Source: an uncultured archaeon
GTDB lineage: Archaea; Asgardarchaeota; Jordiarchaeia; Jordiarchaeales; Jordiarchaeaceae
Direction of reading: 5' to 3'
DNA length: 64,000 bases
NCBI GenBank assembly: GCA_964510585.1
Contig: CAZECW010000193.1
Span: forward strand, 1,248 to 65,247
Positions 16,358 to 60,674 of the stretch are shown piece by piece; within the stretch, counting starts at the first letter, position 1, and the number at the start of each line of letters is the position of its first letter. The notes under the pieces are model-generated. The model saw nothing but the letters and a program-made list of their open reading frames with translations, had not been told where the DNA came from and ran no database searches. Both the position numbers and the translations under genes were made by a program.

Positions 16358-17578
16358 GTGAGATCTTTGAGGCTAAAAGATTTTTCCATCACTTCTGCTA
16401 GAGAAATCTTGGGTATTACATGTTTAAGTCTCTTTGTGGATTCCCTTGGTTACGGGATAGTGATTCCAATTCTTCCCACATATGTTTTGTCTCTGGGGGC
16501 CACAGATTACGATTTGGCACTTATTTTTTCCTCATTTGCCATGGTGCAGCTCTTCACTACCATACCTTTTGGCTTGTTTTCGGATAAGTATGGGCGAAAA
16601 GTGTTCATGGTTACGGGAATGCTTCTTCTTGGCATTTCTTTTATGTATTTTCCCTTCGCTCATAGTGTTCTTGCGCTTATTACTTGTAGGGTGGTGCAGG
16701 GCTTGGCCGCCTCTGCTACTTGGTCTTCTGCCCTGGCTCTGGTTGCCGATGCGTATCCTGGTGGTGATAAGGGTGAAAAGTTGGGTATTGCAAATGGGGC
16801 TGTGGGTTTGGGTAACATTGCTGGTCCATTGGTGGGGGGCGTTTTGGGTGATATTAATTTTGGTTTGCCCTTTTTAGTTATAGGTTCTATTGCTTTTTTC
16901 GCCTGTTTCTATATGGTTATGAGATTAAAGTTGGAAAGAGGCGAAGCTGTGGAGGCTCCTGTAGCTTTTCGTGAGATGTTGCGGGGGGCTATCCGAGTCA
17001 GGAATGTTTTGTTGGTGGTTTTCATCAACCTTTTGGTAGCTGTGTTTTTCGGCTTCATTGAGCCACTTTTGCCGCCCTACTTGGGTGGGAGGTTTAACAT
17101 GTCGGGTACGCAGATTGGTTTATTCTTTGGGGGCGCCTTTCTAACCTATGTAGTTTCTCAGCCCTTTGTAGGAAGATTGTCGGATAGGTATGGGAGAAAG
17201 ATGTTTATTGTGAGTGGGTTAATTGCTCTTTGTATCACAAATGTGGTGATTCCCTATCTCTCTGATGTGTGGACTCTCTTTGCACTGCTTGTTGTTATGG
17301 GGGTTTTTTGGAGTTTAGCGTATACGCCGCTTATGCCTCTTGCTGTGGATTCTTTGAGGAGCAAAAATAGGGAAACTTTTGGGACAATGTCTGGATTCTT
17401 CAATATTGCCTGGAACTCGGGATACAGCATAGGTCCCATAATAGGGGCTCTGGTAACCTCCTATTTTGGTTTTGAATCAATATTCTGGTTTTTCAGCGGG
17501 TTGCTTGTGGTGATGATAATTGTTTCCCAAACCTTGATAGCTGAGAAGAGGGTGTTTGTCGCGAAGGCGACTAATTAA
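16358..17578 (+). CDS. MFS transporter (DHA1-like), paralogue 1
   Basis: 12-TM hydrophobic profile. Motif A-like GLFSDKYGRK and repeated GRLSDRYGRK. Confidence 0.8.
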   Translation: MRSLRLKDFSITSAREILGITCLSLFVDSLGYGIVIPILPTYVLSLGATDYDLALIFSSFAMVQLFTTIPFGLFSDKYGRKVFMVTGMLLLGISFMYFPFAHSVLALITCRVVQGLAASATWSSALALVADAYPGGDKGEKLGIANGAVGLGNIAGPLVGGVLGDINFGLPFLVIGSIAFFACFYMVMRLKLERGEAVEAPVAFREMLRGAIRVRNVLLVVFINLLVAVFFGFIEPLLPPYLGGRFNMSGTQIGLFFGGAFLTYVVSQPFVGRLSDRYGRKMFIVSGLIALCITNVVIPYLSDVWTLFALLVVMGVFWSLAYTPLMPLAVDSLRSKNRETFGTMSGFFNIAWNSGYSIGPIIGALVTSYFGFESIFWFFSGLLVVMIIVSQTLIAEKRVFVAKATN

Positions 17579-17727
17579 AAATTTTTTTATGAATAATAAC
17601 AAATAAATTTAAATAAATAGCCAAAAATTTCTTATTTTTTAAGTCTGAGAAATCGGTTAGCCTTAAAAATTCTCCAGCCATTTTCTTTCTGGAGAAGACC
17701 AAAGAGCCGAGAAGGGGGCGTTAAAAT

Positions 17728-19008
17728 ATGCAGAGACATTTTAAGAAGATGCCCCGCTCAACCGAAATACTCATAATGGTTTGTACCAGTGCATTTACTG
17801 ACTCATTGGGATACGGGATAATAATTCCGTTCCTCCCACAGTACGCCATGTCCCTTGGCGCGTCTGACCTAGATGTGGGCATTATCTTCGCCACCTACGC
17901 ACTGGTACAGTTAGTGACCACCATACCATTCGGTTTGCTATCTGATCGCTATGGTAGAAGACCCTTCATGATTTCGGGAATGCTCCTTCTCGGCATAGCT
18001 TCACTATTATTCCCCCTAGCCCAAACCGTGCACCTGATGATATTATGTAGAGCAATACAGGGTTTGGCGGCTGCGGCGACCTGGTCTTCAGCAGTAGCAT
18101 TAGTGGCAGACACATTTCCGGGAAACGATAAGGGAACAAAACTCGGAATAATGGCGGGAGTAACCAATATGGGAGGCATTGCAGGACCCTTACTGGGAGG
18201 AGCCCTATCCGATGTGAATTTCAACATACCATTTCTATTAATTGCCGCTCTATCAATATTTATGTTCGCCTACATGTTCTTCCGACTAAAACTGCCCCCC
18301 AGAGAAAATAAGGCGGGGGAAATTTCGTACATGACGATGATAAGAGGCGCCCTGAGAATCAGAAACGTTGTTATAATCATACTCATTAACGCGTTGACAA
18401 TGATTTTCTGGGGCTTCGTAGAACCCTTAATGCCCCCGTACCTCTCTGGTAGATTTTCACTGTCAAGTACCCAGATTGGCATCATTTTTGGTGCCATGTC
18501 TCTCATCTATGCCTCAATTCAACCATTAGTGGGCAGACTAACTGACAAGTATGGACAGAAAAGATTCATAATAGCGGGAATGGCCCTCCAAGCATCCATA
18601 GGTTTAATCATACCACTATGCAGTGATGTGGTAAGCTTAGCCGTTTGCCTGGTGCTAATCGCCGCGGTGGGTGCCATAGCTTGGACACCATTAACACCCC
18701 TATATGTAGAATCTCTCCAAGATGGAAACATGGAAGCCTACGCAACAGTTGGCTCTCTCTTTGGCACCGCATACTACATAGGATACATTATTGGGCCGGT
18801 AATTGGAACTCTGGTAAGTTCCCATTTCGGATTTGGAGCAGTCTTCATCTTTAACAGCATAATACTATTAGCCCTAGTTCTCTTATCAGGATTATATATT
18901 AAAGACGGAAAAAGGGCAGAGGCAAAAACGCAAGTAATGGAGTCGAAAATTTCCAGACAAAGAATCATAAACCGCAAAAAACCTCAGGAGCTAACAATAA
19001 GAGCTTAG
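17728..19008 (+). CDS. MFS transporter, paralogue 2
   Basis: Estimated ~75% aa identity to paralogue 3 and ~55% to paralogue 1. GLLSDRYGRRP and GRLTDKYGQKR motifs. The start may be the internal M (MPRSTEIL… or MVC…). Confidence 0.8.
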   Translation: MQRHFKKMPRSTEILIMVCTSAFTDSLGYGIIIPFLPQYAMSLGASDLDVGIIFATYALVQLVTTIPFGLLSDRYGRRPFMISGMLLLGIASLLFPLAQTVHLMILCRAIQGLAAAATWSSAVALVADTFPGNDKGTKLGIMAGVTNMGGIAGPLLGGALSDVNFNIPFLLIAALSIFMFAYMFFRLKLPPRENKAGEISYMTMIRGALRIRNVVIIILINALTMIFWGFVEPLMPPYLSGRFSLSSTQIGIIFGAMSLIYASIQPLVGRLTDKYGQKRFIIAGMALQASIGLIIPLCSDVVSLAVCLVLIAAVGAIAWTPLTPLYVESLQDGNMEAYATVGSLFGTAYYIGYIIGPVIGTLVSSHFGFGAVFIFNSIILLALVLLSGLYIKDGKRAEAKTQVMESKISRQRIINRKKPQELTIRA

Positions 19009-19386
19009 ACCTACTGAACATAAGATTGGTTTCACTTATCCCCACAATTAAAATTGTTCCGCCACTATTTACTTTCCTCACCTTCCCTTTTTATGGCCTG
19101 GAGCCGCTGTACATTTGCCATCTCCAGCAACTTGGGGAAAACTAAACCAACCCCAATTTAACTCATTCAAATTAGTGGAATTCTCTCTAATACCGTAACC
19201 TATTTTCAATTAATACAGGCAAGGGTTCAATAAATAGTTGGTGTGACTTATTTCTTCCCATTACAGGTTAGAATGTCACAAGCCACACTATTTTTTCAAT
19301 CATTATTGAGATTTCTTCTTTTATCATTTTTGAAAAGTTAAGCTTAAAAATTTAAGAGCTACTGGTTTTTTGAAAAATGGAATTAA

Positions 19387-20631
19387 TTGTGGGACCTGAT
19401 TTTTTTGCGGTTATCACTAGCCAGGCCTAAACCACCTATTGAAATATTAATCATGGTTTGCCTAAGTGCATTCATAGACTCCTTAGGCTACGGGATAGTG
19501 GTTCCTTTTCTTCCCCAGTATGCTTTGTCACTGGGAGCCTCGGATTTAGATTTGGGTATTATTTTTTCCTCCTATGCCCTGGTGCAGCTGGTGACATCTG
19601 TTCCTTTTGGGCTGATGTCTGACCGTTATGGCAGAAGATGGTTTATGATTAGCGGAATGCTTCTTCTGGGTGTGGCTTCTCTTGTTTATCCTTTGGCGCA
19701 AAGTGTGCTTATGATATCAGCATGTAGAGCTATACAAGGTTTGGCGGCTTCTGCTACCTGGTCTTCTGCCATAGCATTAGTGGCTGACACGTTCCCAGGG
19801 AGGGATAAGGGGGAAAAGTTAGGAATCGCGACTGGAGTATCCGGTATGGGAGGCATTGTGGGCCCCATGGTGGGGGGCGCCTTATCTGACATAAATTTTA
19901 TTTATCCCTTCCTCCTTATAGCTGTCCTTTCTTTGGCTATGTTCACCTACATGTTTTTCAGATTGAAAATTTCCAGAAAAGAAAAATTAGTTGAAGCTCC
20001 ACCCTATGTGGAAACCATTAAAAAGGCTCTTGGAATCAGAAACATTCTCATAATAATAGTTATCAATGTTTTAACCACAATTTTCTGGGGATTCATTGAG
20101 CCCTTAATGCCCCCATACCTTTCTGGACGTTTTTCGCTCTCCGCTACACAAATAGGTTTAATTTTCGGCGTGGCTTCTCTGAGCTACGCGGTCTGCCAAC
20201 CATTTGTGGGCAGACTATCTGATAGATACGGAAGAAAGATTTTTATTGTAACAGGTATGGCTCTACTTGCAGCTGTGAATCTAATTATCCCATTTTGTGT
20301 AGACCCAGTAAGTTTAACAATAGTTATAATGACCACCGCATCCATCGGAGCCTTGGCCTTTACTCCCTTGACTCCCCTGGCCATAGAGTCGCTTCAAGAC
20401 CAAAATATTGAAGCCTATGCTACAGTGAACTCGCTGTTTGGTATCGCTTTCTATATAGGTTATAGCGCTGGCCCGGTGATTGGAGCTTTAATCAGTTCAT
20501 ATTTTGGATTCGAATCAATGTTCTTCTTCTACAGCATAATACTGTTAACAGTTCTCATCGTATCCCAGGCCAAATTAAAAGAAATAATGAAAAAAGAGGA
20601 AAAAGCAGTGATAAGAAGCACAAAAAAATAA
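19387..20631 (+). CDS. MFS transporter, paralogue 3
   Basis: GLMSDRYGRRW and GRLSDRYGRKI motifs. Nucleotide similarity to paralogue 2 extends into the 5' end (…gaaatattaatcATGGTTTG…). The start is possibly the internal ATG at ~19453. Confidence 0.8.
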   Translation: MWDLIFLRLSLARPKPPIEILIMVCLSAFIDSLGYGIVVPFLPQYALSLGASDLDLGIIFSSYALVQLVTSVPFGLMSDRYGRRWFMISGMLLLGVASLVYPLAQSVLMISACRAIQGLAASATWSSAIALVADTFPGRDKGEKLGIATGVSGMGGIVGPMVGGALSDINFIYPFLLIAVLSLAMFTYMFFRLKISRKEKLVEAPPYVETIKKALGIRNILIIIVINVLTTIFWGFIEPLMPPYLSGRFSLSATQIGLIFGVASLSYAVCQPFVGRLSDRYGRKIFIVTGMALLAAVNLIIPFCVDPVSLTIVIMTTASIGALAFTPLTPLAIESLQDQNIEAYATVNSLFGIAFYIGYSAGPVIGALISSYFGFESMFFFYSIILLTVLIVSQAKLKEIMKKEEKAVIRSTKK

Positions 20632-42225: not shown

Positions 42226-42692
42226 ATATAAGACTAAACGGAACAGTATTTTTAAACAAGCTATAAATCTATCTACAACATTAAAAAACTACAAGAAACA
42301 CAGGAAAACATTGAGTCAGAAACACAACACCAAACACAGCAAATAAAAAATCTTTGCAAACACAATTAAGAAACACAAGCAAATTTATAGCCACACTTGC
42401 TCCAGCTTTCATGGAAGGCACTTTCTCTTCCATATTCGAGAGGGCCAATTACACCTGCGACGTTTTTCACCCATAGACACAGATCTGTCCCCTTTTTTGA
42501 GGGCTGAAAAATCAGATATCTGGTTATCAACGCTTTACCTAAAAAAAGAAGCCGCACTCTGCTCATTGGGAAGGTCTCTGGGTGGTTCCAGACGTACACC
42601 TTTCTTGTGTTTGTGTTTGTTTGGCTTCACTGAGGACTCGTTTAAAAGGATTTTAGAAAAAGGGGGAAGGGAAGACTTAATTCTTGTGGTTC

Positions 42693-43291
42693 TTATTTTT
42701 TCAGGAGTTCTTTCCTCCTTTCTTCTAGTTTCAGGAGTTCTTTCCTCCTTTCTTCTAGAAGTTGAAGGATTTTGTCTCTGTCTTTGGGAAATGTTTTGTA
42801 AGGTATGAACCATATTAGAAAGCAGATTGTCCATGGAATTACTGTTGTCCAAAGCATAGCTGTTGTCAGTGATTGTCCAGAAAGCGTGAATAATACAAGC
42901 AGGAAAGGTAGCGGGAGGATACCAAGCCAGTAACCCATGTAAGGCGTTATGGTCTGCATTGTTAAGCCGGCTATTCCCCCGTTGAGAGTATCTGCAAGCC
43001 ATCCTACAAACACAGCTGCGACAGCTGCAAATCCCCCCTCAAACATTTGTTCTATGGAGAAGGCGGTGCTTCTTATTTCTGGTTTGGTTACCATAGCAAC
43101 CAAGGGTTGAACTGCGGCAGGGCCAGACCAACTACTCAGAATCGCTGCGATGAAGGCCAAAATTGTGTATTCTGTTATTGACAGGGGCAAAACTAGAATC
43201 AAGAATATTAAAGGAATACCGGAGAAAACAGAAATCTGAGTTACAAAACCTTGGTGAGAAAGCCCCCGACTTCAAGTCGTGGGGATGAATC
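42693..43291 (-). pseudogene. C-terminal (last ~4-5 TM) fragment of an MFS transporter gene, 5'-truncated at the boundary of the GC-rich segment
   Basis: Open frame reads …SRGLSHQGFVTQISVFSGIPLIFLILVLPLS…GWLADTLNGG (motif-A-like loop 8-9)…TPYMGYWLGILPLP… It has no N-terminal half and no ATG. The frame opens exactly where the base composition changes (~43265-43291). It carries a 30-bp tandem duplication at its 3' end. Confidence 0.5.
42703..42765. repeat. Perfect 30-bp tandem direct repeat (2 copies)
   Basis: The + strand reads tttcaggagttctttcctcctttcttctag x2. On the minus strand it encodes the duplicated peptide LEERRKELLK at the C-terminus of the MFS fragment. Confidence 0.9.
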
Positions 43292-44990
43292 GCCAGAAAG
43301 TTTATTTGAAAGTAGGGTATATAAATAGTTGTTGGTAGCTGAAGGGTTTGGCTTGGGCTTAAGAGGCTAAACAAGATGCAGCCCCCATGAGGGTGCCAAC
43401 ATAGACGCCGTTCCCCTGAGGGAAGGGCGTGTTAACTGGGTGATGGCACACCCATTGCTTCGAAGGCTCCCGATGAGCCAGAAGCAAGAATCTCCCGACT
43501 TTAGTCACGGAGAGTGTCAATTTTTGCATCGCCTGAAATAGTTATATGTCGGAGGCCTGTACCCTACCACTACGCTTTCAGGCTACTCAATGTACAGAGT
43601 TTTACCCTCTACAGCTTTGGGAACACTCCCTATGCTCTTGATTTCGGCGCCCATTCCACTAGTGGACGAAATCTGCACCAACGTCAAAAGCGTAGTTCTT
43701 CGAGCGGCGATTAGTGAAGAGCAGAAGGGTACAGCACAAACAGCCACTTGCCGGAGAGGAAGAGACCTCGGTCAGCGACGAGGACCGAGGCTCATTGTGG
43801 AACCGCGTGATCAGGGAAACAAGAAGTCAGCACCTCAGAGGGCACTATCTCCTCGCCGACAAAATCGCCACAATCCTGGGACTCCATAGAGGCCTTTAAA
43901 AAGAGGAGTAGAAACACTGCTATAAAACCCCTTGAGAAGCTTGCTGCGATGCTCATTGTGAAGGAGACGGCGAACCTGAGCTTCGAGAAGCTTCACATGG
44001 AGGCGAGAGCCACAAAGCTACGATGCCCAAAACAGACCAGGCGGAGGAAAAGGATTACAAAGGCCACGGAGTCTCCTGCCAGTACCAACAGAACTGGGCA
44101 AAGACCAAAATCCCAGAGGAGTGCCTCCAAAAGACCCTTATGCTTCTAGATCAGATGGTTGCCCAGATGTACGCGGAGCGCTCTTAGGAGATGAAAATCT
44201 TGAAGAATACAGCATGTCCTCAAAAATGGTACACCTGCATCCTCCTTAGAGAAGTCCGGGTTGCCATGAGGATTATTCTTCGACACCAAATAGTCAGATA
44301 CAATATTTTGACTAGGCTAGCAACGAACACTGTAGGGACTATAGACGCCCCACTGCTGAAGAATACGAGGGGTGCAAGAACCCTTCTGGAACAGGTACCA
44401 CCAGGCTCAACCGTCTATATGGACTGTGAGTAAGGTGTCGAGTACAAATATCTGCATTCTCACAGGGGAGAGTACTCCTCATTTTGTGTCTTAAAGCAGT
44501 ACCGGGAATGCCCTATAAGGGATACTCCGTTGCCAAGCTCAGAAGAACTTTGACTGGGAGAGATACCGCCGCTGTGAGCTTGCTTGGGAGACCCATGGGA
44601 GATAGGTGTGGCGAGGGACGGTGGCACGCTGAAGTACCGGAGGCTAGACAAGGTATGAAGTTGTCTTACTCTCAGGTACATAGCTCACAATGTTAATGTG
44701 TGGTTCACGCAACGAGCAATACTCTTCAGCAGATACAAACTTGGTAGGTGTACAGGACAGTACGTATAGGAGCCCAGAGCAGTTGTCACTGTCTGACCGC
44801 TCGGCTCAGTCGTCACGACAGCATAGCATCCGAATGGGAAGTGAATGAGGGGAAACAGAAACACTGTATGGGCTCAAGCAAAACTAATAAGCGTATAAGT
44901 ACATCAATCTTTTTACATGTTTTCACGGAAGAAAAAAAGACAAAAATATCTTCCTCTTTGGGAAAAGGTAGGCAGAAAAGCTAGATCTAC
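43265..44990. other. ~1.7 kb compositionally distinct (about 50% GC), ORF-poor segment. Candidate structured RNA or degraded foreign/mobile insertion
   Basis: Only short overlapping ORFs (<100 aa) in several frames, with low-complexity R/G/P translations. Multiple GC-rich hairpins, e.g. gagaCCTCGGTCagcgacgagGACCGAGGctc at ~43768-43799. It abuts the truncated MFS gene on one side and the nuoI 3' end on the other. Confidence 0.4.
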
Positions 44991-45092
44991 TTCCTGAGCT
45001 GGACAACAAAATACTGCAACTAACTCCAAAAAACCAAAAAGGAAACAAACAACCAACAAACAAAAAATAAATTAAAAATTAGGGAAGGAGAC

Positions 45093-45482
45093 TCACTCAG
45101 TCTCCATGTCAACGATCCATTCCATAGCCTTCCGATCCGAAGTAGCCAGCTCATACTCTGTAGTCATCGTAAGGGCATCTCTAGGGCAGCTCTCGACACA
45201 CTGTTCGCAAAACAAGCAGCGACCTAGGTCTACTCGTGGTAGTTTGCCCGCCTTATTCTTCAATTCTTCTGGATACTCTTTTGGCCAGTCTATCATTTCG
45301 ATGGCTGCGGATGGACAGTCCTTAGCGCATGTGCCACAACCGACGCATCTTTTGAGGTATAATATGTGTCTTCCTCTGAGGCGTTCGAATGGTGGTAGTT
45401 TCTCGAATGGGTAGAATATTGTGAATGGTTTTTTTGGAAGGTTTTTTAGTAGTTCGGGTTCCATTGCTCCTGGTATGGGCAT
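45093..45482 (-). CDS. nuoI: NADH-quinone oxidoreductase subunit I (2x[4Fe-4S])
   Basis: CVGCGTCAKDCP and CLFCEQCVESCP clusters. Confidence 0.85.
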   Translation of the reverse strand: MPIPGAMEPELLKNLPKKPFTIFYPFEKLPPFERLRGRHILYLKRCVGCGTCAKDCPSAAIEMIDWPKEYPEELKNKAGKLPRVDLGRCLFCEQCVESCPRDALTMTTEYELATSDRKAMEWIVDMETE

Positions 45483-45495
45483 TTTTTCACGCTCC

Positions 45496-46755
45496 TTATA
45501 TGAGTAGTGTTATCCATATTAGTAGGTTGTAGGTTGCTTGCCACTTGAATAGGTCGAAGTAGAATACAAGTTGAAGTATGAGTATGTTTAGGAATGCTAG
45601 TGGAATCAGATATTTCCAAGAGCCTCGGACTACTTGGTCTATTCTGAATCTTGCGAAGAGTGTTCTTAGGTTGGCTATTAAGAATATGATTGCGAATACT
45701 TTTATTAGGAACCATATGGTGCCGATTATGTATCCCAGTGGGAAGGCTCCCATTATTCTTTCTATTGTGGTTAGTCCTATTTCGCTTCCCGGGCCCCAGG
45801 GGCCTCCTAGGAATAGGGCTGCTGCTAGTCCCGCTGCCCATAGGTATTCGAGGTCGTTGGCTAGTCGGAATAGGGCTAGTTTTCTGCCTGATATTTCGGT
45901 TTGCCACCCCGCTACTATTTCTGTGTGTGCTTCTGGAATGTCGAAGGGTACTTTTTCAAGTTCTGCCATTTGGGAGATTATGAGTACTGCGAATGATATT
46001 GGTGCTACCAGTATGAAGGGTATGCCTATGGTTTGTTGGGCTTGGGTTATGTTTGCTATAGTTAGGACTGAGAATATTGTGGGTGTAGTTATAGGGGCTA
46101 TTCCGAGGACTGTGTTTAGGAGGTTGTTGACTTGTACTGGTACTGAGTAGTAGTAGGCCACGATTATTGCTGGTGTTAGAGTTGATAGTACTAGTGGGAT
46201 TTCGTAGGCGATGAGTTGCATTCCTGCTCTGGCTGTTCCTACTTCACTGAATCTGTCGATTGAGAACCAGCCGGTTAATATGATTGCTAGGACGTAGATT
46301 GTGGAGAGGAATAGTAGTACTATGAGGTCTCCTTCAAAGCTTATGATGCCTGCGCTTCTGTAAACGGGGATGAACATGAGCATTACCAGTGATAACGTTA
46401 GGGCAAAGATTGGTGTTGCCGCAAGGCTGCGGGCTTCTGCGCCTTTGTGCACTATATCTTCTTTGGCTAGAAGTTTTATTATGTCCGCTAATGGCTGCAG
46501 AATCCCGTGGTACCCGGTGTGGAATGGTCCTACCCGGTTTTGTAATCTGGCGTATATTTTTCGGTCGTACCATTCTGCAAAGAGTGAGACGACGCTTACG
46601 AATAGTATGCCTGGGAATATGAGTATTTTGAATAGGTCCAGTGGAAGGTTTACTTGTTGCTGGAGTAAGTATTGGATCAGTGTGATGAGGTTGCTATATT
46701 GTGGGAATAGGTATAGTATTATGTACCAGAATAGGTCAACTGCCATTTTTACCAC
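45496..46755 (-). CDS. nuoH: NADH-quinone oxidoreductase subunit H, with ~50-aa N-terminal extension
   Basis: …LFAEWYDRKIYARLQNRVGPFHTGYHGILQPLADIIKLLAKEDI… NuoH/ND1 signature. 419 aa. Confidence 0.85.
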   Translation of the reverse strand: MVKMAVDLFWYIILYLFPQYSNLITLIQYLLQQQVNLPLDLFKILIFPGILFVSVVSLFAEWYDRKIYARLQNRVGPFHTGYHGILQPLADIIKLLAKEDIVHKGAEARSLAATPIFALTLSLVMLMFIPVYRSAGIISFEGDLIVLLFLSTIYVLAIILTGWFSIDRFSEVGTARAGMQLIAYEIPLVLSTLTPAIIVAYYYSVPVQVNNLLNTVLGIAPITTPTIFSVLTIANITQAQQTIGIPFILVAPISFAVLIISQMAELEKVPFDIPEAHTEIVAGWQTEISGRKLALFRLANDLEYLWAAGLAAALFLGGPWGPGSEIGLTTIERIMGAFPLGYIIGTIWFLIKVFAIIFLIANLRTLFARFRIDQVVRGSWKYLIPLAFLNILILQLVFYFDLFKWQATYNLLIWITLLI

Positions 46756-53915: not shown

Positions 53916-54239
53916 ATGGTTAGTGAAACCATAATAAAAGTCACAAGAATTCTGGCAAGCATAATCCTAGCAGCATTCGTCATAGCAACAGTAATAAAAG
54001 TGTTCTGGCTAACCCCCGGAGTCTTCTACCCCTTCTACCTATCACTATTCCCACCAATGGCAAACGCCACAACGCCAACCGCCGCAGTTTGGCAAATAGC
54101 ATTCTTTGAAGGACAATACCTTTGGTCAAACAGAATCATCGACACCATGACACTAGCCATAGTGCTAGTCGCCACAGGAATTGGAGCAGCAATCATGCTC
54201 CGAGAAGAACCCGAAGAAGAGAAGGGAGTTGAAAAATAA
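53916..54239 (+). CDS. NADH-quinone oxidoreductase subunit J, C-terminal part (second ORF of split nuoJ)
   Basis: C-terminal …IIDTMTLAIVLVATGIGAAIMLRE resembles the NuoJ C-terminal helix (…LLVAxVGAIVLAR). Starts 3 nt after the previous ORF, in a different frame. Confidence 0.5.
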   Translation: MVSETIIKVTRILASIILAAFVIATVIKVFWLTPGVFYPFYLSLFPPMANATTPTAAVWQIAFFEGQYLWSNRIIDTMTLAIVLVATGIGAAIMLREEPEEEKGVEK

Positions 54240-54673
54240 TGGCGTTACCCGTATCACCTACAGTTTATTTGGTAGGCGCAGCCATACTCTACGGAGTTGG
54301 ACTATACTGCGTCACAACCAAAAGAAACGTCATAAAACTGGTAATCGGCATTGAAATACTGGTCGCAGCAGCCCACCTAAACTTCATAGCCTTTTCAGCA
54401 TACAGATGGTTCACCCAATGGGCCCTAGGCATATTCTCAGTCTTCAGCAGCATGGGAATAACCGACAACCTCACCCTGACACTACTTGGATCCTACTTCA
54501 TCACAGCCAACCTCTACACACCGCTCTACGTTGACCCCCTAGCACACGCCATAGTGATAATATCCATTGTTCTTGGAGGCTGTGTAGTAGCAATCGCCCT
54601 GTCCTTCATAGTGAACCTCTACAAGCACTACGGAACTCTAGACTCAGAAAAAATGAGAAAACTAAAATGGTAG
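54239..54673 (+). CDS. nuoK: NADH-quinone oxidoreductase subunit K (with internal insertion)
   Basis: …KRNVIKLVIGIEILVAAAHLNFIAFS… matches the NuoK core (RRNxIxxLMSIELMLNAVNLNFVAFS). Confidence 0.7.
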   Translation: MALPVSPTVYLVGAAILYGVGLYCVTTKRNVIKLVIGIEILVAAAHLNFIAFSAYRWFTQWALGIFSVFSSMGITDNLTLTLLGSYFITANLYTPLYVDPLAHAIVIISIVLGGCVVAIALSFIVNLYKHYGTLDSEKMRKLKW

Positions 54674-54682
54674 GGATGAAAA

Positions 54683-57085
54683 ATGATGATACCATATGCA
54701 CCTTGGCTTGTTTGGATAATTCCCATGTTAGGAGCAGTCCTAACACCCCTATTTAGCAAAATCCACCACAAATTCAGAGACCTATGCGCCATACTATTCG
54801 CAGGCGCAGCAGCAGTAATAGCCATAAGCATGATACCAGACATATGGGCCGGATACATAACCCTACCCCAACCACAAATACTACTGGGACTAACAGCATT
54901 CCCCACATACCCCTGGGACATAACAATACCCCTAACCACAGACTGGCACATAATCATCAAGTGGATGGCACTCATACCCTACGACTGGACCTACCTCTGG
55001 ATACCCAACATCCCCATAAACCCACCATCACAAATAGGAGTCTACCTACCCCAAGGACTATACGCAGGAGTACTAGTAGACCCACTAAGCATATTCATGG
55101 CCAACGTAACCGCATGCATAGGATTCCTAATAATGGTCTTCTCCCTAGGCTACATGCACGGAGAACCAGACCTAACACGCTACTGGTTCTTCATGAACTT
55201 CTTCATCGGCGGCATGATATTCCTAGTAATATCCGACAACCTCATCCAAATGTTCATAGGCTGGGAAATAGTTGGGCTCTGCAGCTGGGGCCTAATAGGC
55301 TTCTGGCACAAAGCCCGAGAACCAAGCCCAGTCCCCGACTACGTAACAGAGGGAGAGTACAACGCCTACTGCGGCATGAAAGCATTCATAACCACAAAAG
55401 TCGGCGACATAGCCCTACTAATAGCAATAGTAATCATATTCTTCGCCTCCGGAACCTTCAACTACGCCCAACTACAGCAAAACGCAGCAATACAACTCCT
55501 CAACCCACTAATAGGCCTCACAAGTAATGGTCTGGGTTGGGTGAGCAGCCTAGCCATAAGAGGACTACTCCCCGCAGTAGCCATACTATTCTTCGGCGGC
55601 CCAGTAGCAAAATCCGCACAGTTCCCACTAGACGTATGGTTACCAGAAGCCATGGCTGGTCCCACAACAGTCTCAGCACTCATACACGCTGCCACCATGG
55701 TAAAGGCAGGTGTATACCTAGTAGCCAGAATGCTACCCATATTCTTCGGAGTACCACACCTACTACAAACCCTAATAGTAGACCCCACACTATATACACT
55801 CTATGGCCTAACCCTCAACGCCCAACAATGGCTCCTACTCTACATAAACGTCCAAATGGGAATACAAATCTTCTTCACAACCGTTGCCATCATAGGAGGA
55901 TTCACAGCCTTCCTCACAGCCAGCATGGGCCTAGTAGCAAGCGAAATCAAAAAAGTCCTAGCCTACTCCACCATGTCACAAATTGGATACATGATGCTTG
56001 CCCTGGGAATCGCTGGAATCTCTGGAGTCACAGCCATGGGATTTCTCGCTGGTACATTCCACCTCATGGCCCACGCCATCTTCAAGGCCCTATTGTTCCT
56101 TAGCGCCGGAGCGGTTCTCCACGCTGTGGAAACTAAGAACATGTTTGAGATGGGTGGCCTAAAAACAAGGATGCCCATCACATACGCCTGCTTCCTTGTG
56201 GGTGCTCTATCCCTAGCGGGCTTTCCAGGATTTGCCGGCTTCTTCAGCAAGGAGGCAATACTCGGCGCAACACTACAAGCAAACCAACTAATTCTCTTCG
56301 CATTGGCAGGAATTGTGGTAGCAATGACCACCTTCTACACATTCCGTATGTTGGGATTAACCTTCCACGGACCAGAAAGCAAACATGTCAAAAGCTACGA
56401 GAAGGAAAAAGGGCCAGTTCACGAGGCCCCACCAGTCATGTGGACACCACTAGTAGTACTGGCTGGCGGCACAATACTAGCTGGATGGTTTGAGCCAGTT
56501 TTCAGAAAATACTTCCTAGGACCATTCACCAACTACCTGCACAGTTTCCAGGAGCTTTTCCACGTACAGCCATACCTTCTAGGCGGGCTGATTTTCAGTG
56601 AAGTCCCCTATGGCCTGTCCGAAGAGGCAACTCTACTCTTGGAGTACTGGCACTACTTTGAGATGACCAGTTACAGCGGATGGCTGGCAGAACTGGCAAG
56701 CGCTTGGCCATCAATCCTGCTTTCACTGGGACTATTCGCTCTGGGCTTCATACCTGCTTGGTACTACTACATATCCCGAAGGGGCGCCGCAGAAAGAATA
56801 ACCAGCAGCCGTTTGGGTGGAGCTATCTGGAAATTCTTGGTAAACAGGTGGTATATCAACCAGCTCTACCACATAGTTTTCGTCAAGGGATTCCTGGCGG
56901 GAATCGCTTGGCTCTACAGAAACCTGGAAGTCAAGGTTCTTGACGGATTCAACTACGCTACTGCAAAGTTGACCATAGTGGTAAGCGACAAGTTCAGAAG
57001 GACACAGACTGGAATAGCGTTCATCAATGCACTAATGATAGTTTTGGGAGTGACAATACTGGCAATAATATTTGTACTATGGTAG
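54683..57085 (+). CDS. nuoL: NADH-quinone oxidoreductase subunit L (long form, 800 aa)
   Basis: Mrp-antiporter-like core …FIGWEIVGLCSW…, …ALIHAATMVKAGVYLVARM…, …HAIFKALLFLSAG… Long amphipathic C-terminal extension typical of NuoL. Confidence 0.85.
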   Translation: MMIPYAPWLVWIIPMLGAVLTPLFSKIHHKFRDLCAILFAGAAAVIAISMIPDIWAGYITLPQPQILLGLTAFPTYPWDITIPLTTDWHIIIKWMALIPYDWTYLWIPNIPINPPSQIGVYLPQGLYAGVLVDPLSIFMANVTACIGFLIMVFSLGYMHGEPDLTRYWFFMNFFIGGMIFLVISDNLIQMFIGWEIVGLCSWGLIGFWHKAREPSPVPDYVTEGEYNAYCGMKAFITTKVGDIALLIAIVIIFFASGTFNYAQLQQNAAIQLLNPLIGLTSNGLGWVSSLAIRGLLPAVAILFFGGPVAKSAQFPLDVWLPEAMAGPTTVSALIHAATMVKAGVYLVARMLPIFFGVPHLLQTLIVDPTLYTLYGLTLNAQQWLLLYINVQMGIQIFFTTVAIIGGFTAFLTASMGLVASEIKKVLAYSTMSQIGYMMLALGIAGISGVTAMGFLAGTFHLMAHAIFKALLFLSAGAVLHAVETKNMFEMGGLKTRMPITYACFLVGALSLAGFPGFAGFFSKEAILGATLQANQLILFALAGIVVAMTTFYTFRMLGLTFHGPESKHVKSYEKEKGPVHEAPPVMWTPLVVLAGGTILAGWFEPVFRKYFLGPFTNYLHSFQELFHVQPYLLGGLIFSEVPYGLSEEATLLLEYWHYFEMTSYSGWLAELASAWPSILLSLGLFALGFIPAWYYYISRRGAAERITSSRLGGAIWKFLVNRWYINQLYHIVFVKGFLAGIAWLYRNLEVKVLDGFNYATAKLTIVVSDKFRRTQTGIAFINALMIVLGVTILAIIFVLW

Positions 57086-57097
57086 GAGGAATAAGAA

Positions 57098-58918
57098 ATG
57101 ATAAACAACATTTTAGCAAGCTACGAACTACTTGCATCAATAGCAGTACTACTAATAATGGGACCCATAGTTTACCTTATAGGAAAAAAGTCCGGCAAAG
57201 CTGCAAGATGGCTAGCCTTCCTAACCGCAGCAACATCAGCAGCACTCCTAGCACACATAGGAATAATTTTACTCGACCCCTACGCAGTATCCCTAACAGT
57301 AACAATTGACTCCACGACATGGACTTACAGCTTCATATACTCAAGCCAAATAGTGCCAACCGCCGCATTACAGTTCAATGTGCAACTCTACCCCTTCACC
57401 ACTTCCCTCAACCAAATCCCATGGATATGGAACAACTTCGACCGAGCAATAGCAGTCCCCATGTATCAGGCATACAGTGTAATACCCGACTACCCATACC
57501 TTGTACTGCTCTCCATGGATCCCCTAAGCAACATTCCAAGACTTCCTTCGCTTACCGCTGGCCTACTCGCCGACGGTTTAAGCTATCCCATAGCCATACT
57601 CATCTCGGGATTGGGCGCCGCTGTAATGTTCTTCTCCGCCTACTACATGAAGGACGTAGAGAGTCCAGGAAGCTTCTTTGGAAACATGCTATTCTTCATC
57701 GGTGGCATGATTGGAGTAGTACTGGCAACCACAGTAATAGAGTTCTTCATCTTCTGGGAAGTAATGCTAATACCATCGTACATACTGGTGAACCAGTTCG
57801 GACTGACCGAGAATAAGAGCAGAACCGCCCTCAAATACTTCCTGTGGACCACATTCGGCAGCGTAATAATGTTTGTAGGAATATTCATGATGGGCGTAAC
57901 CCTAAACACCTTCGACTTCCAACAAATGACCCTCAACCTAGCAGCAGCACAAACCGCATACGCAACCTACCTTGGCACACTCATACCCTTCGGAGCAACA
58001 TTCAACCAGTGGCTAAGCCTATTCCTAACCGGACTGGTACTCGTCATACCCGCAATACTAATCTTCATCGGCTTCGCAGTCAAAATGGCAATATTCCCAC
58101 TCCACACCTGGCTACCAGACACATATATGGAAGCACCAATGCCCGTCGTCCTACTATTAAGTGCGGCCATGACCAAAACCGCAGCCTACGGTATCGCCAG
58201 ATTCCTAGTAATCTACATGGGCCCATCACTACAAATGCTCCAAGTAAGCCTAGCAATAATCGGACTAGTAACCGCAGCTTACGGCGGAATCATGGCATTA
58301 ACACAAAACAACCTAAAGAAAATGCTAGCCTACTCATCTATGAGTCAAATGGGATATATTTTGTTCGGCTTTGCTATGGTTTCGGTGCTGGGTGTGAACG
58401 GTTCGCTTCTACATATTTTGAACCATGGTATTTGCATGGGCGTATGGTTTATGGTTGCAGCAATCATATCGAAGGCTACTGGCACCTTGGACTTCGATAA
58501 ACTTGGAGGTTTGTCTGAGAGGATGCCCGCAGTGGCCGCAATTGCTGTTATCGCTGGTTTATCAGTAGCTGGTGTTCCGCCCCTACTGGGCTTCTCCAGT
58601 GAGTGGATGATCTTTGCGGGTGGCGTGATGGCCACTCAGTACCTGCTTACAGCATTGTTAATAGTGGCTACCGCAATCACACTGGGCTACTATCTATGGG
58701 CGGTTCGTCGGATTTTCTTCGGACCACTAAAAGAGGGACTTGAGAAAGTGACTACTCCTCGAAGCCTACTGGCTCCAATTGTAGTTCTAGCAGCCTTCAT
58801 AATCGTGTTGGGCATAGCGCCAGCAATTGCCACACAGTACTTTACGCCGATAATCAACCAGATACTTGCGCCATGGTATGGATACCAACAAATACTGTAT
58901 TTATTAGGAGGCCTGTAA
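57098..58918 (+). CDS. nuoM: NADH-quinone oxidoreductase subunit M
   Basis: …FFIFWEVMLIPSYILV…, …HTWLPDTYMEAPMPVVLLLSA…, …ILNHGICMG… antiporter-like motifs. 606 aa. Confidence 0.85.
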   Translation: MINNILASYELLASIAVLLIMGPIVYLIGKKSGKAARWLAFLTAATSAALLAHIGIILLDPYAVSLTVTIDSTTWTYSFIYSSQIVPTAALQFNVQLYPFTTSLNQIPWIWNNFDRAIAVPMYQAYSVIPDYPYLVLLSMDPLSNIPRLPSLTAGLLADGLSYPIAILISGLGAAVMFFSAYYMKDVESPGSFFGNMLFFIGGMIGVVLATTVIEFFIFWEVMLIPSYILVNQFGLTENKSRTALKYFLWTTFGSVIMFVGIFMMGVTLNTFDFQQMTLNLAAAQTAYATYLGTLIPFGATFNQWLSLFLTGLVLVIPAILIFIGFAVKMAIFPLHTWLPDTYMEAPMPVVLLLSAAMTKTAAYGIARFLVIYMGPSLQMLQVSLAIIGLVTAAYGGIMALTQNNLKKMLAYSSMSQMGYILFGFAMVSVLGVNGSLLHILNHGICMGVWFMVAAIISKATGTLDFDKLGGLSERMPAVAAIAVIAGLSVAGVPPLLGFSSEWMIFAGGVMATQYLLTALLIVATAITLGYYLWAVRRIFFGPLKEGLEKVTTPRSLLAPIVVLAAFIIVLGIAPAIATQYFTPIINQILAPWYGYQQILYLLGGL

Positions 58919-58919
58919 A

Positions 58920-60674
58920 ATGATAAGCGACATTAACTTACTGTATCCCATAATAATCCCAATTGGGACCGCGTTACTGGTACTAGGAGCTGGCTCCCTA
59001 TTCGAAAAAGTGGCGGGAGGCAGACTCCAGAGAATTAGAGAAGCACTGGCAACTTTAGGCTTCGCGGCTACGGCAGTGGTTATTTATCAGCTGTACTGGG
59101 ATCTTACTGTTCTGAAACTAGTATCTGACTTCTCACTCCTAGTTTGGGGCGTCTATATTACGCCCACGTTCTACTTTGAGTACATGCCTGGCGGCTTTGC
59201 ATTAAATATGTTCATAAATCTGTTGTTGGGCGGCGCGGGTCCGTTGTCACTGGTCACAGCACCGCCTACGGGCTCTGTGTTCGCAGTAGACTTTCTAAGC
59301 ATGCTTATGGCGGCGGCCTTCACCGGTCTGGGGCTACTGGTATGCATCTACTCCATAAACTATATGGAGCACGATACAGGAAAGACCAAGTATTATGCAG
59401 CGCTACTAGTGCTGGTGGGTTCTCTTAACGGAATAGTTTTTGCAGGTGACCTGTTCACACTATTCGTGTTCTTTGAAATGATGAGCATCACCGCCTTTGT
59501 CTTGGTGGGATTCAGAAAAGAAAAGTGGGAACCGGTAGAGGCGGGTTTCAAGTATCTAGTAATGGTGGCAGTTGGGAGCACTTTGATTCTCTACGCTAGC
59601 TCATTCATATATGGATACACTGGCACGCTAAACTTCGCCTACGTTGGAACCCTTATGAACGCTTTGGATCAGCTTCAATTGTACACTGGCAGACCTCTAT
59701 TCTACCTGATAGTTGCATTTTTGATTGCGGGTTTCGGTGTTGAGTCTGCTATTGTGCCGTTCCACTTCTGGCTTCCTGACGCGCATCCGGCGGCTCCTAG
59801 CGGCATGAGTGCTATGCTGTCGGGTGTGGTGATCGCTTCTGGTGTGTATGCTTTGATTCGAAGCTTGACTGTGATGTTCCCAATTCAGTCCACACCATTC
59901 CCATATCTATGGTTCACGTTCTCCACAACTCCCTATAGTTACCCGTATGGTTTCCCATCCTTCCCCTATCCTTTTGACTGGAACTACGCACTAGTTGTAC
60001 TGTCTATAATTACTATGGTTGTAGCTAACATCATGGCTCTCCTACAAAAGGACATTAAGCGTCTGTTAGCTTATAGCAGTATTCTAAACATCGGCTACAT
60101 ATTAATCGGCTTATCCACTGGGACCCTTCTGGGATTCACCGCTTCGTGGTTCCACGTAGTTAACCATGCTATGATGAAGGGACTCCTGTTCTTGTGCGCG
60201 GGAGCTTACCTGCATGCTACGGGGTCTCGAATGCTAGATGACCTGTCTGGTATTGGACGGAAGATGCCCGCTACAAGCATTGCTTTAGCTATTGGCTCTT
60301 TGGGGCTTATTGGTTTACCACCGTTCAATGGCTTCTGGTCTAAGCTGTTGTTGATTCTTGCACCGGTTCAGCTTGCCCCCTTCACCCTGAATGGTGCGGT
60401 CTGGATTACTCTGGCTCTGGTGGCAGTATTGGCTAGTGGCTTCTCAGCCATATATTACTTGAGGCTGATTCAGATTATATGGTTTGGTAAGGAGTCTGCA
60501 AAGGTCAAGGAGCTGGAGAAGTCGAGAACTCCACTTTGGATGCTTGTGGCTATTGTGCTACTGGCTGTGGGCTGCGTGGTTTTCGGCTTATTCCCAGGTG
60601 TGCTTTATGCTATATCAAATAGGGCGGCTGAGGCTCTATTCTACTTGCCAGCGTACTTTGGCGGAATCCTCTAA
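58920..60674 (+). CDS. nuoN: NADH-quinone oxidoreductase subunit N
   Basis: …FVFFEMMSITAFVLVG…, …HFWLPDAHPAAPSGMSAML…, …VVNHAMMKGLLFLCAG… Overlaps the nuoM stop by 1 nt. Confidence 0.8.
   Translation: MISDINLLYPIIIPIGTALLVLGAGSLFEKVAGGRLQRIREALATLGFAATAVVIYQLYWDLTVLKLVSDFSLLVWGVYITPTFYFEYMPGGFALNMFINLLLGGAGPLSLVTAPPTGSVFAVDFLSMLMAAAFTGLGLLVCIYSINYMEHDTGKTKYYAALLVLVGSLNGIVFAGDLFTLFVFFEMMSITAFVLVGFRKEKWEPVEAGFKYLVMVAVGSTLILYASSFIYGYTGTLNFAYVGTLMNALDQLQLYTGRPLFYLIVAFLIAGFGVESAIVPFHFWLPDAHPAAPSGMSAMLSGVVIASGVYALIRSLTVMFPIQSTPFPYLWFTFSTTPYSYPYGFPSFPYPFDWNYALVVLSIITMVVANIMALLQKDIKRLLAYSSILNIGYILIGLSTGTLLGFTASWFHVVNHAMMKGLLFLCAGAYLHATGSRMLDDLSGIGRKMPATSIALAIGSLGLIGLPPFNGFWSKLLLILAPVQLAPFTLNGAVWITLALVAVLASGFSAIYYLRLIQIIWFGKESAKVKELEKSRTPLWMLVAIVLLAVGCVVFGLFPGVLYAISNRAAEALFYLPAYFGGIL

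Follow-up and report, generated by a model that had tools for sequence, protein, structure and literature searches.

The GC-rich, ORF-poor segment lying between a fragment of an MFS transporter gene and a nuoI-like gene in the genome of an Asgard archaeon related to Candidatus Jordarchaeia is the wreck of an insertion sequence (IS) together with a 276-bp miniature transposon of the IS608 type, and is neither a structured RNA nor an intron. We are highly confident that positions 43245-44924 of the window (the whole 64,000-nucleotide stretch of DNA that was analysed) consist of mobile DNA that is dead or non-autonomous, in two pieces, one nested in the other. The outcome is mainly a clean negative: what might have been a large RNA or an intron of an Asgard archaeon is neither. 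It also reveals an Asgard IS608-type element that bears exactly the four guide and cleavage tetranucleotides of its Helicobacter pylori counterpart and has multiplied to dozens of copies. "Insertion remnant", an alternative in the title of the preliminary description, was the correct one in respect of the decayed IS, and the candidate explanation of anonymous foreign DNA gives way to the identification of the segment as a decayed IS plus an IS200/IS605-type element.

The rise in base composition that first drew attention to this region is real: GC content is 49.0% over the originally proposed limits of 43265-44990 as against 42.8% in the whole window, which ranks this interval 23rd of 1246 windows of the same size (sd 3.1%). 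The flanking genes, however, have 43-45% GC and not the ~40% previously given. Another GC-high stretch of the window, at 50%, lies near position 55100. Likewise, the segment is indeed poor in ORFs, the longest being just 99 aa. It combines high GC with few ORFs and odd translations in all frames because the transposase gene of the inserted IS has decayed; members of this IS family have 52.6-54.8% GC, compared to the 42.8% of the host. While the segment as such stands, its limits have to be moved, as the true left junction is at 43241/43245 and the mobile DNA ends at 44924 (Table 1). A scan for tRNA and tmRNA genes found none, and searches of phage and plasmid DNA collections gave no match. The nuoI-like gene is the constant right-hand neighbor of the segment, and the same protein adjoins it in L001-L009.

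Table 1. Features of the segment and its flanks, in window coordinates
Feature	Position	Strand	Basis
C-terminal remnant of MFS transporter gene (~175 codons and stop, of ~526)	42693-43244	-	tblastn with L068
TTAC, target and left cleavage tetranucleotide, part of the host (MFS) sequence	43241-43244	+	flanks of 82 matches
276-bp protein-less IS200/IS605-family element (PATE/MITE), IS608-like	43245-43520	+	repeat limits, hairpins, motifs
Left guide AAAG	43259-43262		
Left hairpin	43263-43284	+	predicted fold
Right guide GAAT	43488-43491		
Right hairpin	43492-43512	+	predicted fold
Right cleavage site TCAA	43517-43520		
Decayed IS5-like (DDE_Tnp_1) IS; first 42 nt, with the left inverted repeat, missing	43521-44924	+	homology to L101, L102
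Transposase pseudogene	43532-44741	+	stitched translation, tblastn, frameshift-aware alignment
Degraded right TIR of the IS (CAATCTTTTTACATGTTTTC versus CAATTTTTTGGACGTGTTC in L101, L102)	44905-44924	+	comparison with L101, L102
AT-rich intergenic DNA (34% GC), 3' flank of nuoI	44925-45092	.	GC content; T-rich on minus strand
nuoI-like 2x[4Fe-4S] subunit gene, last of the nuoA-I cluster	45093-45482	-	Pfam Fer4 families

The larger of the two elements was recognized from both its DNA and its coding remnant. The DNA between 43521 and 44913 shows 75% nucleotide identity to two uninterrupted IS copies (L101 and L102), and the intact relatives of this IS are 1461 bp long, with the inverted repeat (TIR) GAGCACGTCCAAAAA, of 15-19 bp among these relatives, and a 9-bp target duplication (TSD). 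When its frames are stitched together, the translation matches a Jordarchaeia/Freyarchaeota transposase (P0001) in a large protein database at E=1.8e-56, with 49% identity and 94% coverage. The corresponding tblastn HSPs are spread over three frames, and a frameshift-aware alignment of 43532-44718 to DDE_Tnp_1 transposases (P0002/P0001) recovers 258 identical residues out of 388 (66.5%). It spans residues 2-394 of 404 and has to cross 13 frameshifts as well as 2 in-frame stops. Thus, where no transposase had been thought to be encoded, there is a DDE transposase gene, heavily frameshifted, that takes up the greater part of the segment, and a decayed protein-coding gene running across the frames is the very outcome that the preliminary description had named as counting against its proposal. 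Recoding of one type of stop codon was considered as a cause of the broken frames and rejected, as TAA, TAG and TGA are all present.

Pfam searches with the six-frame translations of the segment (stops masked) and with single inter-stop pieces returned no match, even at E<=10, and a stitched piece gave none either. Because Pfam is silent on these translations, the pseudogene call draws not on a family profile but on the more closely related Asgard transposases, and it was the large protein database, which includes these, that revealed it. Of the relatives, P0003 and P0001 exceed the Pfam cut-off for DDE_Tnp_1 (PF01609), and intact P0003 scores 52.7 bits against the closest NCBIfam model, that of the IS5 family (NF033579), for which the cut-off is 140. 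Going by sequence, the element is filed at the level of the IS4/IS5 superfamily only, the IS5 family in the sense of the NCBIfam/ISfinder cut-off not being reached; the score below this cut-off therefore marks it as a divergent, apparently Asgard-specific lineage. Its intact relatives share with other members of the superfamily a single 400-aa transposase gene, TIRs and a 9-bp TSD. The window copy, in contrast, is a pseudogene, lacks the left end and carries a nested element. Searches for further copies of the unique part of the segment (tblastx and blastn) found none in the window, in 534 kb of contigs from the same population or at the loci of five relatives.

In relatives with nuo genes 78-89% identical at the nucleotide level the segment is absent, nucleotide homology from the nuo genes stopping at window positions 45003-45088 in L090-L094. 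As for an intact MFS gene, which the preliminary description had suggested looking for at the orthologous locus, the gene downstream of nuoI in L093, examined as a candidate, is unrelated.

The left 280 bp of the segment, overlooked so far as a separate element, belong to a high-copy IS200/IS605-type repeat, which is the actual neighbor of the MFS gene. Homology to contigs of the same species breaks exactly at 43241. The limits of the repeat were set by 11 full or near-full copies of 94-99% identity with unrelated flanks, and comparison of the ends and flanks of these copies revealed no TIR and no TSD. The ends read TTAC/AAAACC... and ...GTGTCAA/, the slash marking the element boundary. Matches to the left end number 82, in 79 stretches of related metagenomes and mostly at contig ends; TTAC precedes all 82 of them, being completed by the TT in front of each match, with 72 distinct upstream flanks. 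The uninterrupted IS copies L101 and L102 supply the empty site, ...ATTTTAC/TTTTTGCAT, at the place where the repeat sits in the window, and show that it was inserted exactly 3' of TTAC at nt 39-42 of the IS. Both ends carry a predicted, imperfect subterminal hairpin on the same strand, each with a 4-nt guide on its 5' side (AAAG with TTAC; GAAT with TCAA). The fold of the whole element is strong (z = -4.8); the right hairpin alone is statistically unexceptional (z -0.7), and position 43505 within it carries a G>A change in the window copy, because of which this copy may itself be immobile.

The cleavage and guide motifs of IS608 are TTAC, AAAG, GAAT and TCAA (PMC5934647, PMC3201880). The archaeal element has the same TTAC outside its left boundary, AAAG and GAAT directly 5' of the hairpins and TCAA at its end, and it conforms to the IS200/IS605 family in general in lacking inverted repeats and target duplication and in inserting in an orientation-specific manner. 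The spacing differs slightly, the foot of the left hairpin being 18 nt from TTAC versus 19 in IS608, and TCAA ending ~8 nt beyond the foot of the right hairpin versus 10. In contrast to IS608 of Helicobacter pylori, the element resides in an Asgard archaeon, has hairpins of unrelated sequence and measures 276 bp, with a strongly folding interior and, in the window copy, a mismatch in the right hairpin from the G>A change. Like the palindrome-associated transposable elements (PATEs), the protein-less derivatives of the IS200/IS605 family, it encodes no protein and is present in many copies beside an autonomous element that has a Y1 tnpA followed by a tnpB-like ORF; we refer to it as a PATE.

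Its autonomous counterpart is represented by L045, in which TTAC and a near-identical left end are followed by tnpA (Y1_Tnp, 114.9 bits) and then by the start of a tnpB-like gene. A full autonomous IS200/IS605 element with its RE was not recovered, L045 ending inside tnpB, and a scan of a genome-contig collection with the left-end motif of the PATE gave 0 matches. The right two-thirds of the PATE probably derive from an autonomous element of the L045 type, and a Y1 TnpA would mobilize the PATE in trans.

The possibility that the segment is instead a large structured non-coding RNA specific to this archaeon, in the manner of OLE, GOLLD and ROOL, drew on its raised GC, the want of a long ORF, a length of ~1.5 kb and some GC-rich hairpins. 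Two hairpins singled out earlier do exist, at 43766-43790 and 44770-44807, and locally stable folds are found at 43375-43524 (z ~-5) and 44200-44349 (plus strand, z -4). Nevertheless, the region as a whole folds no better than shuffled sequence (z -0.93 on the plus and -0.62 on the minus strand), the stem-loops described as frequent not being above chance, and sliding windows are mostly near 0 outside the 276-bp repeat and 44200-44349. It is the repeated PATE, not the unique part, that contains the strongest fold. Searching the whole window against Rfam at the gathering score gave no match, and relaxing the threshold to E<=10 for 42500-45500 brought up only chance-level miRNA and sRNA families. 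Furthermore, a transposase pseudogene with 66.5% amino-acid identity accounts for the sequence in full, and the segment is missing from close relatives; a structured RNA is consequently very improbable.

A retroelement splitting the MFS gene, such as a group II intron that is decayed or has no ORF, is more improbable still. Asgard genomes do carry group II introns, and two motifs might be taken for parts of one, namely GTGAG just inside the left junction and the GAGCC...GGCTC hairpin at 44770-44807, which had been likened to domain V. However, GTGAG is part of the 276-bp repeat bounded by TTAC and TCAA, and the hairpin departs from domain V in the extra bases on its 5' arm and its 18-nt loop. 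No Rfam group II family, be it the domain V/VI model or any other, matches 42500-45500 even at E<=10. Across the segment there is no upstream MFS exon, nuoI ending at 45093, and the coding remnant is that of a DDE transposase, not of a reverse transcriptase.

What the decayed IS and the nested PATE leave to be accounted for is the broken MFS gene. The observation that its frame opens without a start is borne out by tblastn with a 526-aa MFS_1 protein (L068, 131 bits against MFS_1), of which residues 353-524 alone match, to 43244-42729 at 70% identity; by itself the fragment has no Pfam match. Homology stops at GTAA, the reverse complement of TTAC, and the N-terminal part is absent from the window, so that in this assembly the gene is truncated at the segment, as had been claimed. 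As sources of the missing half, L068 (full-length, 70% identical) and L088 (52%) were rejected, being paralogues and not the same gene. A plausible partner is L106, where an MFS N-terminal part abuts the right end of a PATE in the expected orientation, with its break ~45 codons from that in the window.

We propose that an IS5-like element of the IS4/IS5 superfamily, ~1.46 kb long, inserted downstream of nuoI in a Jordarchaeia-like lineage, after which its transposase gene would have decayed. A PATE could then have inserted 3' of the TTAC within this IS by single-strand "peel-and-paste" transposition, the Y1 TnpA being supplied in trans by an autonomous relative, as in L045, and a second copy would have inserted 3' of a TTAC inside the MFS transporter gene. 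The assembly would join the left part of the latter copy, with its MFS flank, to the right part of the IS-borne copy, such that the MFS gene looks cut short and the IS is without its first 42 nt. The MFS/IS junction probably represents either homologous exchange within the PATE or copy-switching by the assembler.

Physical linkage of the MFS gene to the IS is seen in one assembly, that of the window, and we assign somewhat less than an even chance to its being an artefact in which the assembler switched copies inside the 276-bp multi-copy repeat. In that event the real genome would have the remainder of the MFS gene after the MFS-borne PATE, and the IS left end before the IS-borne one. The latter arrangement is seen on L053, where short-word BLAST located the missing, decayed IS left end joined to the left end of a PATE, next to genes in synteny with the region downstream of nuoI in relatives; no intact IS left repeat adjoining a PATE turned up in a regex search. 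No TSD is recognizable for the window IS copy, the left flank on L053, CAATCCCGT, mismatching the right flank in the window, ACGGAAGAA. In keeping with copy-switching, the same PATE-IS-nuoI right side has a different left flank in each of three assemblies. Moreover, the PATE in the window is a mosaic, whose left SNPs match the MFS-linked copies of L103 and L104, both ending inside the PATE, and whose right SNP (A at 43505) matches IS-linked contigs. The arrangement in L106 likewise points this way. Yet a real crossover between PATE copies would leave the same mosaic, the offset of the break in L106 means that it is not the simple complement of the window, and the window belongs to a long contig, of at least 64 kb, which continues through the repeat. 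Even if assembly is at fault, only the truncation by the segment would be illusory, and the identification of the two nested mobile elements is unaffected.

Copies of the PATE are found where contigs break and where independent assemblies differ in gene order, which makes them a practical hazard in the binning and assembly of Jordarchaeia genomes; possibly, they are also a real driver of rearrangement. A joint reading, in our estimate unlikely, would take the PATE to be more than passive junk, acting both as an omega-RNA-like guide RNA and as chromosome-reshuffling repeats. Under this proposal recombination between the dozens of copies could actively reshuffle Jordarchaeia chromosomes, as the three different left flanks at one locus would suggest. 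The interior of the PATE, putatively promoter-bearing, could encode a stand-alone omega-RNA-like guide RNA, whose putative guide would be supplied by the DNA immediately beyond TCAA and which the autonomous element's TnpB would use in trans. A TATA-like box is present in this interior at 43322-43329.

The segment between 43265 and 44990, downstream of nuoI, is an ordinary graveyard of mobile DNA, in which a decayed IS5-like insertion sequence (IS) carries a nested IS608-type PATE (a 276-bp protein-less element, 43245-43520); each of the two adds members to a well-known kind of element. The descriptive part of the preliminary description of this segment holds: the claimed rise in GC content amounts to 49.0% against 42.8% across the 64-kb window (s.d. 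of same-sized windows 3.1%; rank 23 of 1246), the segment is ORF-poor as stated, with no ORF longer than 99 aa, no start codon is present at 43271, where the minus-strand frame to its left opens, and both of the named GC-rich hairpins are present (43766-43790 and 44770-44807). The flanking genes, which had been put at about 40% GC, measure 43-45%, and 50% GC is also reached in one other stretch of the window.

Six-frame translations of the segment yielded no Pfam match, and plus-strand pieces look transposase-like by eye. A search of a large protein collection with a 274-aa stitched translation gave a match to 'transposase [Candidatus Freyarchaeota / Jordarchaeia]' (E=1.8e-56, 49% identity, 94% coverage), together with three relatives, and tblastn located the homology at 43532-44741, spread over all three plus-strand frames. 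The assertion that no transposase is encoded thus fails, and what the match reveals is a decayed protein-coding gene running across the frames, the very outcome that had been named as contradicting the initial interpretation. Two related Asgard transposases (P0002 and P0001) were combined into a 404-aa composite, and when this was aligned to the DNA with frameshifts allowed, its residues 2-394 were covered with 258/388 identities (66.5%); the alignment contains 13 frameshifts and 2 in-frame stops. The Pfam model DDE_Tnp_1 matches intact relatives (P0003, 400 aa) above its cut-off, whereas their best NCBIfam model, 'IS5 family', scores far under its own; their element is 1461 bp long, is bounded by GAGCACGTCCAAAAA terminal inverted repeats and has a duplication of 9 bp. 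At the DNA level, 43521-44913 shares 75% identity with two closer, uninterrupted copies (L101 and L102). The GC content of the IS family, 52.6-54.8%, accounts for the GC bump of the segment, and the 1.4 kb remaining beside the PATE are a dead insertion sequence. In the ERZ505355 assembly, record-name coverage is 67.8 for a contig with an intact 400-aa IS5-like transposase (L099) versus 7.8 for a nuoI contig (L006), which suggests about nine active copies of the IS per genome, if both come from the same host.

Features of the segment and of its right-hand neighbourhood
Feature	Position	Strand	Basis
PATE left end	TTAC 43241-43244; 18 nt ending in AAAG 43259-43262; hairpin 43263-43284	+	sequence, folding
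PATE right end	GAAT 43488-43491; hairpin 43492-43512; TCAA 43517-43520	+	sequence, folding
Degraded right inverted repeat of the IS	44905-44924		comparison with intact copies
nuoA-B-C-D-H-I cluster	right of the segment; last gene (129-aa 2x[4Fe-4S] subunit) 45093-45482	-	

An exact look-up of the NuoI protein retrieved nine same-species contigs. Going left from nuoI, two of these (L001 and L002) match the window at more than 99.5% identity until they diverge completely, exactly at 43241, into flanks that also differ from each other; the sequence beginning at 43241 is found again at the ends of these contigs. When metagenome contigs were scanned with the 24-nt left-end motif, 82 matches in 79 stretches were returned, most of them no more than about 100-200 nt from where a contig ends, which is the signature of a repeat breaking short-read assemblies. 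BLAST restricts the repeated unit to 43241-43520. The flanks of the eleven complete or nearly complete copies (94-99% identity) are unrelated on either side, and none of these copies has terminal inverted repeats or a target duplication; TT precedes all 82 left-end matches, giving TTAC (72 distinct upstream flanks).

In IS608, TTAC serves as both target and left cleavage site; it does not belong to the element and lies 19 nt from the left hairpin, on the 5' side. The left and right guides are AAAG and GAAT, and cleavage on the right occurs at TCAA, 10 nt from the right hairpin on the 3' side (PMC3201880, PMC5934647). All four motifs are shared by the PATE, in which the distance from TTAC to the left hairpin is 18 nt rather than 19. 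The reverse strand of contig L045, from the same metagenome population, reads TTAC, AAAACCGTTGGCGGGAAAG, a hairpin identical to that of the PATE and ATGAATCGCCAAAAAG; behind this left end, nearly identical to that of the PATE, come tnpA, a 129-aa ORF that matches Y1_Tnp at 114.9 bits, and a tnpB-like start, so that L045 carries an autonomous partner of the PATE. Together, the IS608 rule set and this partner mark the 276-bp unit, on sequence grounds, as derived from an IS200/IS605-family element and devoid of protein genes. Derivatives of this kind have been named PATEs and often carry omega-RNAs (PMC10055086). The autonomous element occupies L045 760-1 (reverse strand); its tnpB-like ORF has an in-frame TAA at codon 18, and the contig stops within tnpB. 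The PATE also contains, at 43322-43329, a TATATAAA / TTTATATA motif similar to an archaeal TATA box, which coincides with the point where the PATE and autonomous-element sequences part, and could drive a transcript either through the right end into the flank, in the manner of an omega-RNA, or leftwards into the remnant of the MFS transporter gene. Elsewhere, at L042 294-2207, a PATE left end stops after 60 nt and is followed by an opposite-strand 610-aa ORF with CxxC zinc-finger motifs, which may be another transposable element inserted into a PATE.

The uninterrupted IS copies begin with GAACACGTCC...GTGTTATTTTAC|TTTTTGCATGCC, and the IS sequence of the window begins at 43521 with TTTTTGCATCGCC, exactly past the TTAC at IS positions 39-42, which indicates that the PATE entered the IS by the target rule of its family. 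Nucleotides 1-42 of the IS are missing from the window; this left piece, in decayed form, is present in contig L053, joined to a PATE left end. The upstream genes of L053 are homologous to, and syntenic with, the region downstream of nuoI in two relatives (L090 and L093), so that the PATE-IS-nuoI arrangement of the window probably had L053 as its ancestral left partner. At L053 5069-5246 a decayed left inverted repeat of the IS, about 60 nt long with an internal duplication of about 20 nt, is linked through TTAC to the PATE left end.

The MFS remnant (42729-43244) shares 70% identity with residues 353-524 of an MFS_1 protein of 526 aa (L068), and residues 1-352 of that protein find no match anywhere in the window, in agreement with the earlier view that the gene is truncated at the segment and lacks its N-terminal half. 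Its final homologous codons, GTA ACT, include the reverse complement of TTAC, which argues that a PATE copy inserted within the MFS gene. Two other assemblies (L103 and L104) show the MFS-TTAC-PATE junction in identical form (100%), and both end within the PATE. The PATE of the window is a mosaic, with left SNPs as in these two and the right SNP (A at 43505) as in all IS-linked contigs, and PATE-IS-nuoI has three different left flanks (the window, L001 and L002). These observations point either to real homologous exchange between PATE copies or to assemblers switching copies inside the repeat; we give somewhat less than even chances to the latter, by which the MFS/IS junction would be an assembly artefact. 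The junction of the segment to the truncated gene is thus PATE-mediated or PATE-confounded. In L106 the N-terminal part of an MFS gene abuts the PATE right end in the expected orientation; it is possibly the missing half of the window's gene, though its break lies about 45 codons off that of the window. There (595-1671) about 303 N-terminal codons of the MFS paralogue enter the PATE right end directly, and the ORF as predicted by the gene caller continues into the PATE. At the extreme 3' end of the window's remnant (42690-42749), 30 bp are duplicated in tandem (90% identity), which repeats the peptide EERRKELLK right before the stop. Three tandem MFS_1 paralogues at 16358-20631 (+), of 406, 426 and 414 aa and 61-70% identical in DNA, are only 24% identical to the truncated family.

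A large structured RNA and a decayed group II intron had also been proposed for the segment, and neither is borne out. Rfam gave no match at gathering score or at E<=10, the first 1000 nt of the segment outside the PATE (43521-44520) fold no better than shuffles (z -0.93 and -0.62), and sliding-window z values outside the PATE stay near zero, bar one window; a structured RNA is accordingly rejected. The group II intron is rejected because no model matched, a reverse transcriptase and an upstream exon are both lacking, and the hairpin likened to domain V has the wrong geometry. The exceptional window, 150 nt within the transposase pseudogene (44200-44349; z -4.0 on the plus and -2.0 on the minus strand), may reflect chance among about 150 windows tested.

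In a scan of species-representative genomes the NuoH of the window was closest to those of Candidatus Jordarchaeia MAGs (94% and 92% identity), followed by Jordarchaeum madagascariense (77%) and a Freyarchaeia chromosome (73%), which indicates a Jordarchaeia-like Asgard archaeon as the source. Nucleotide homology covers the nuo genes and ends at 45003-45088 in 5/5 relatives, and neither the PATE nor the rest of the segment was found at their loci, so that the segment is lineage-specific. The 4.7 kb that follow nuoI in the closest relative among the MAGs (L090 9700-14400) are ORF-poor as well, with ORFs of only 76-148 aa, and share no similarity with the segment. The complex-I-like genes of the window form two divergent blocks, nuoA-I (45093-~49400, minus strand) and nuoJ-N (54239-60674, plus strand), between which sit genes for a lipoate-protein ligase, GcvH and an AIRS-domain protein.
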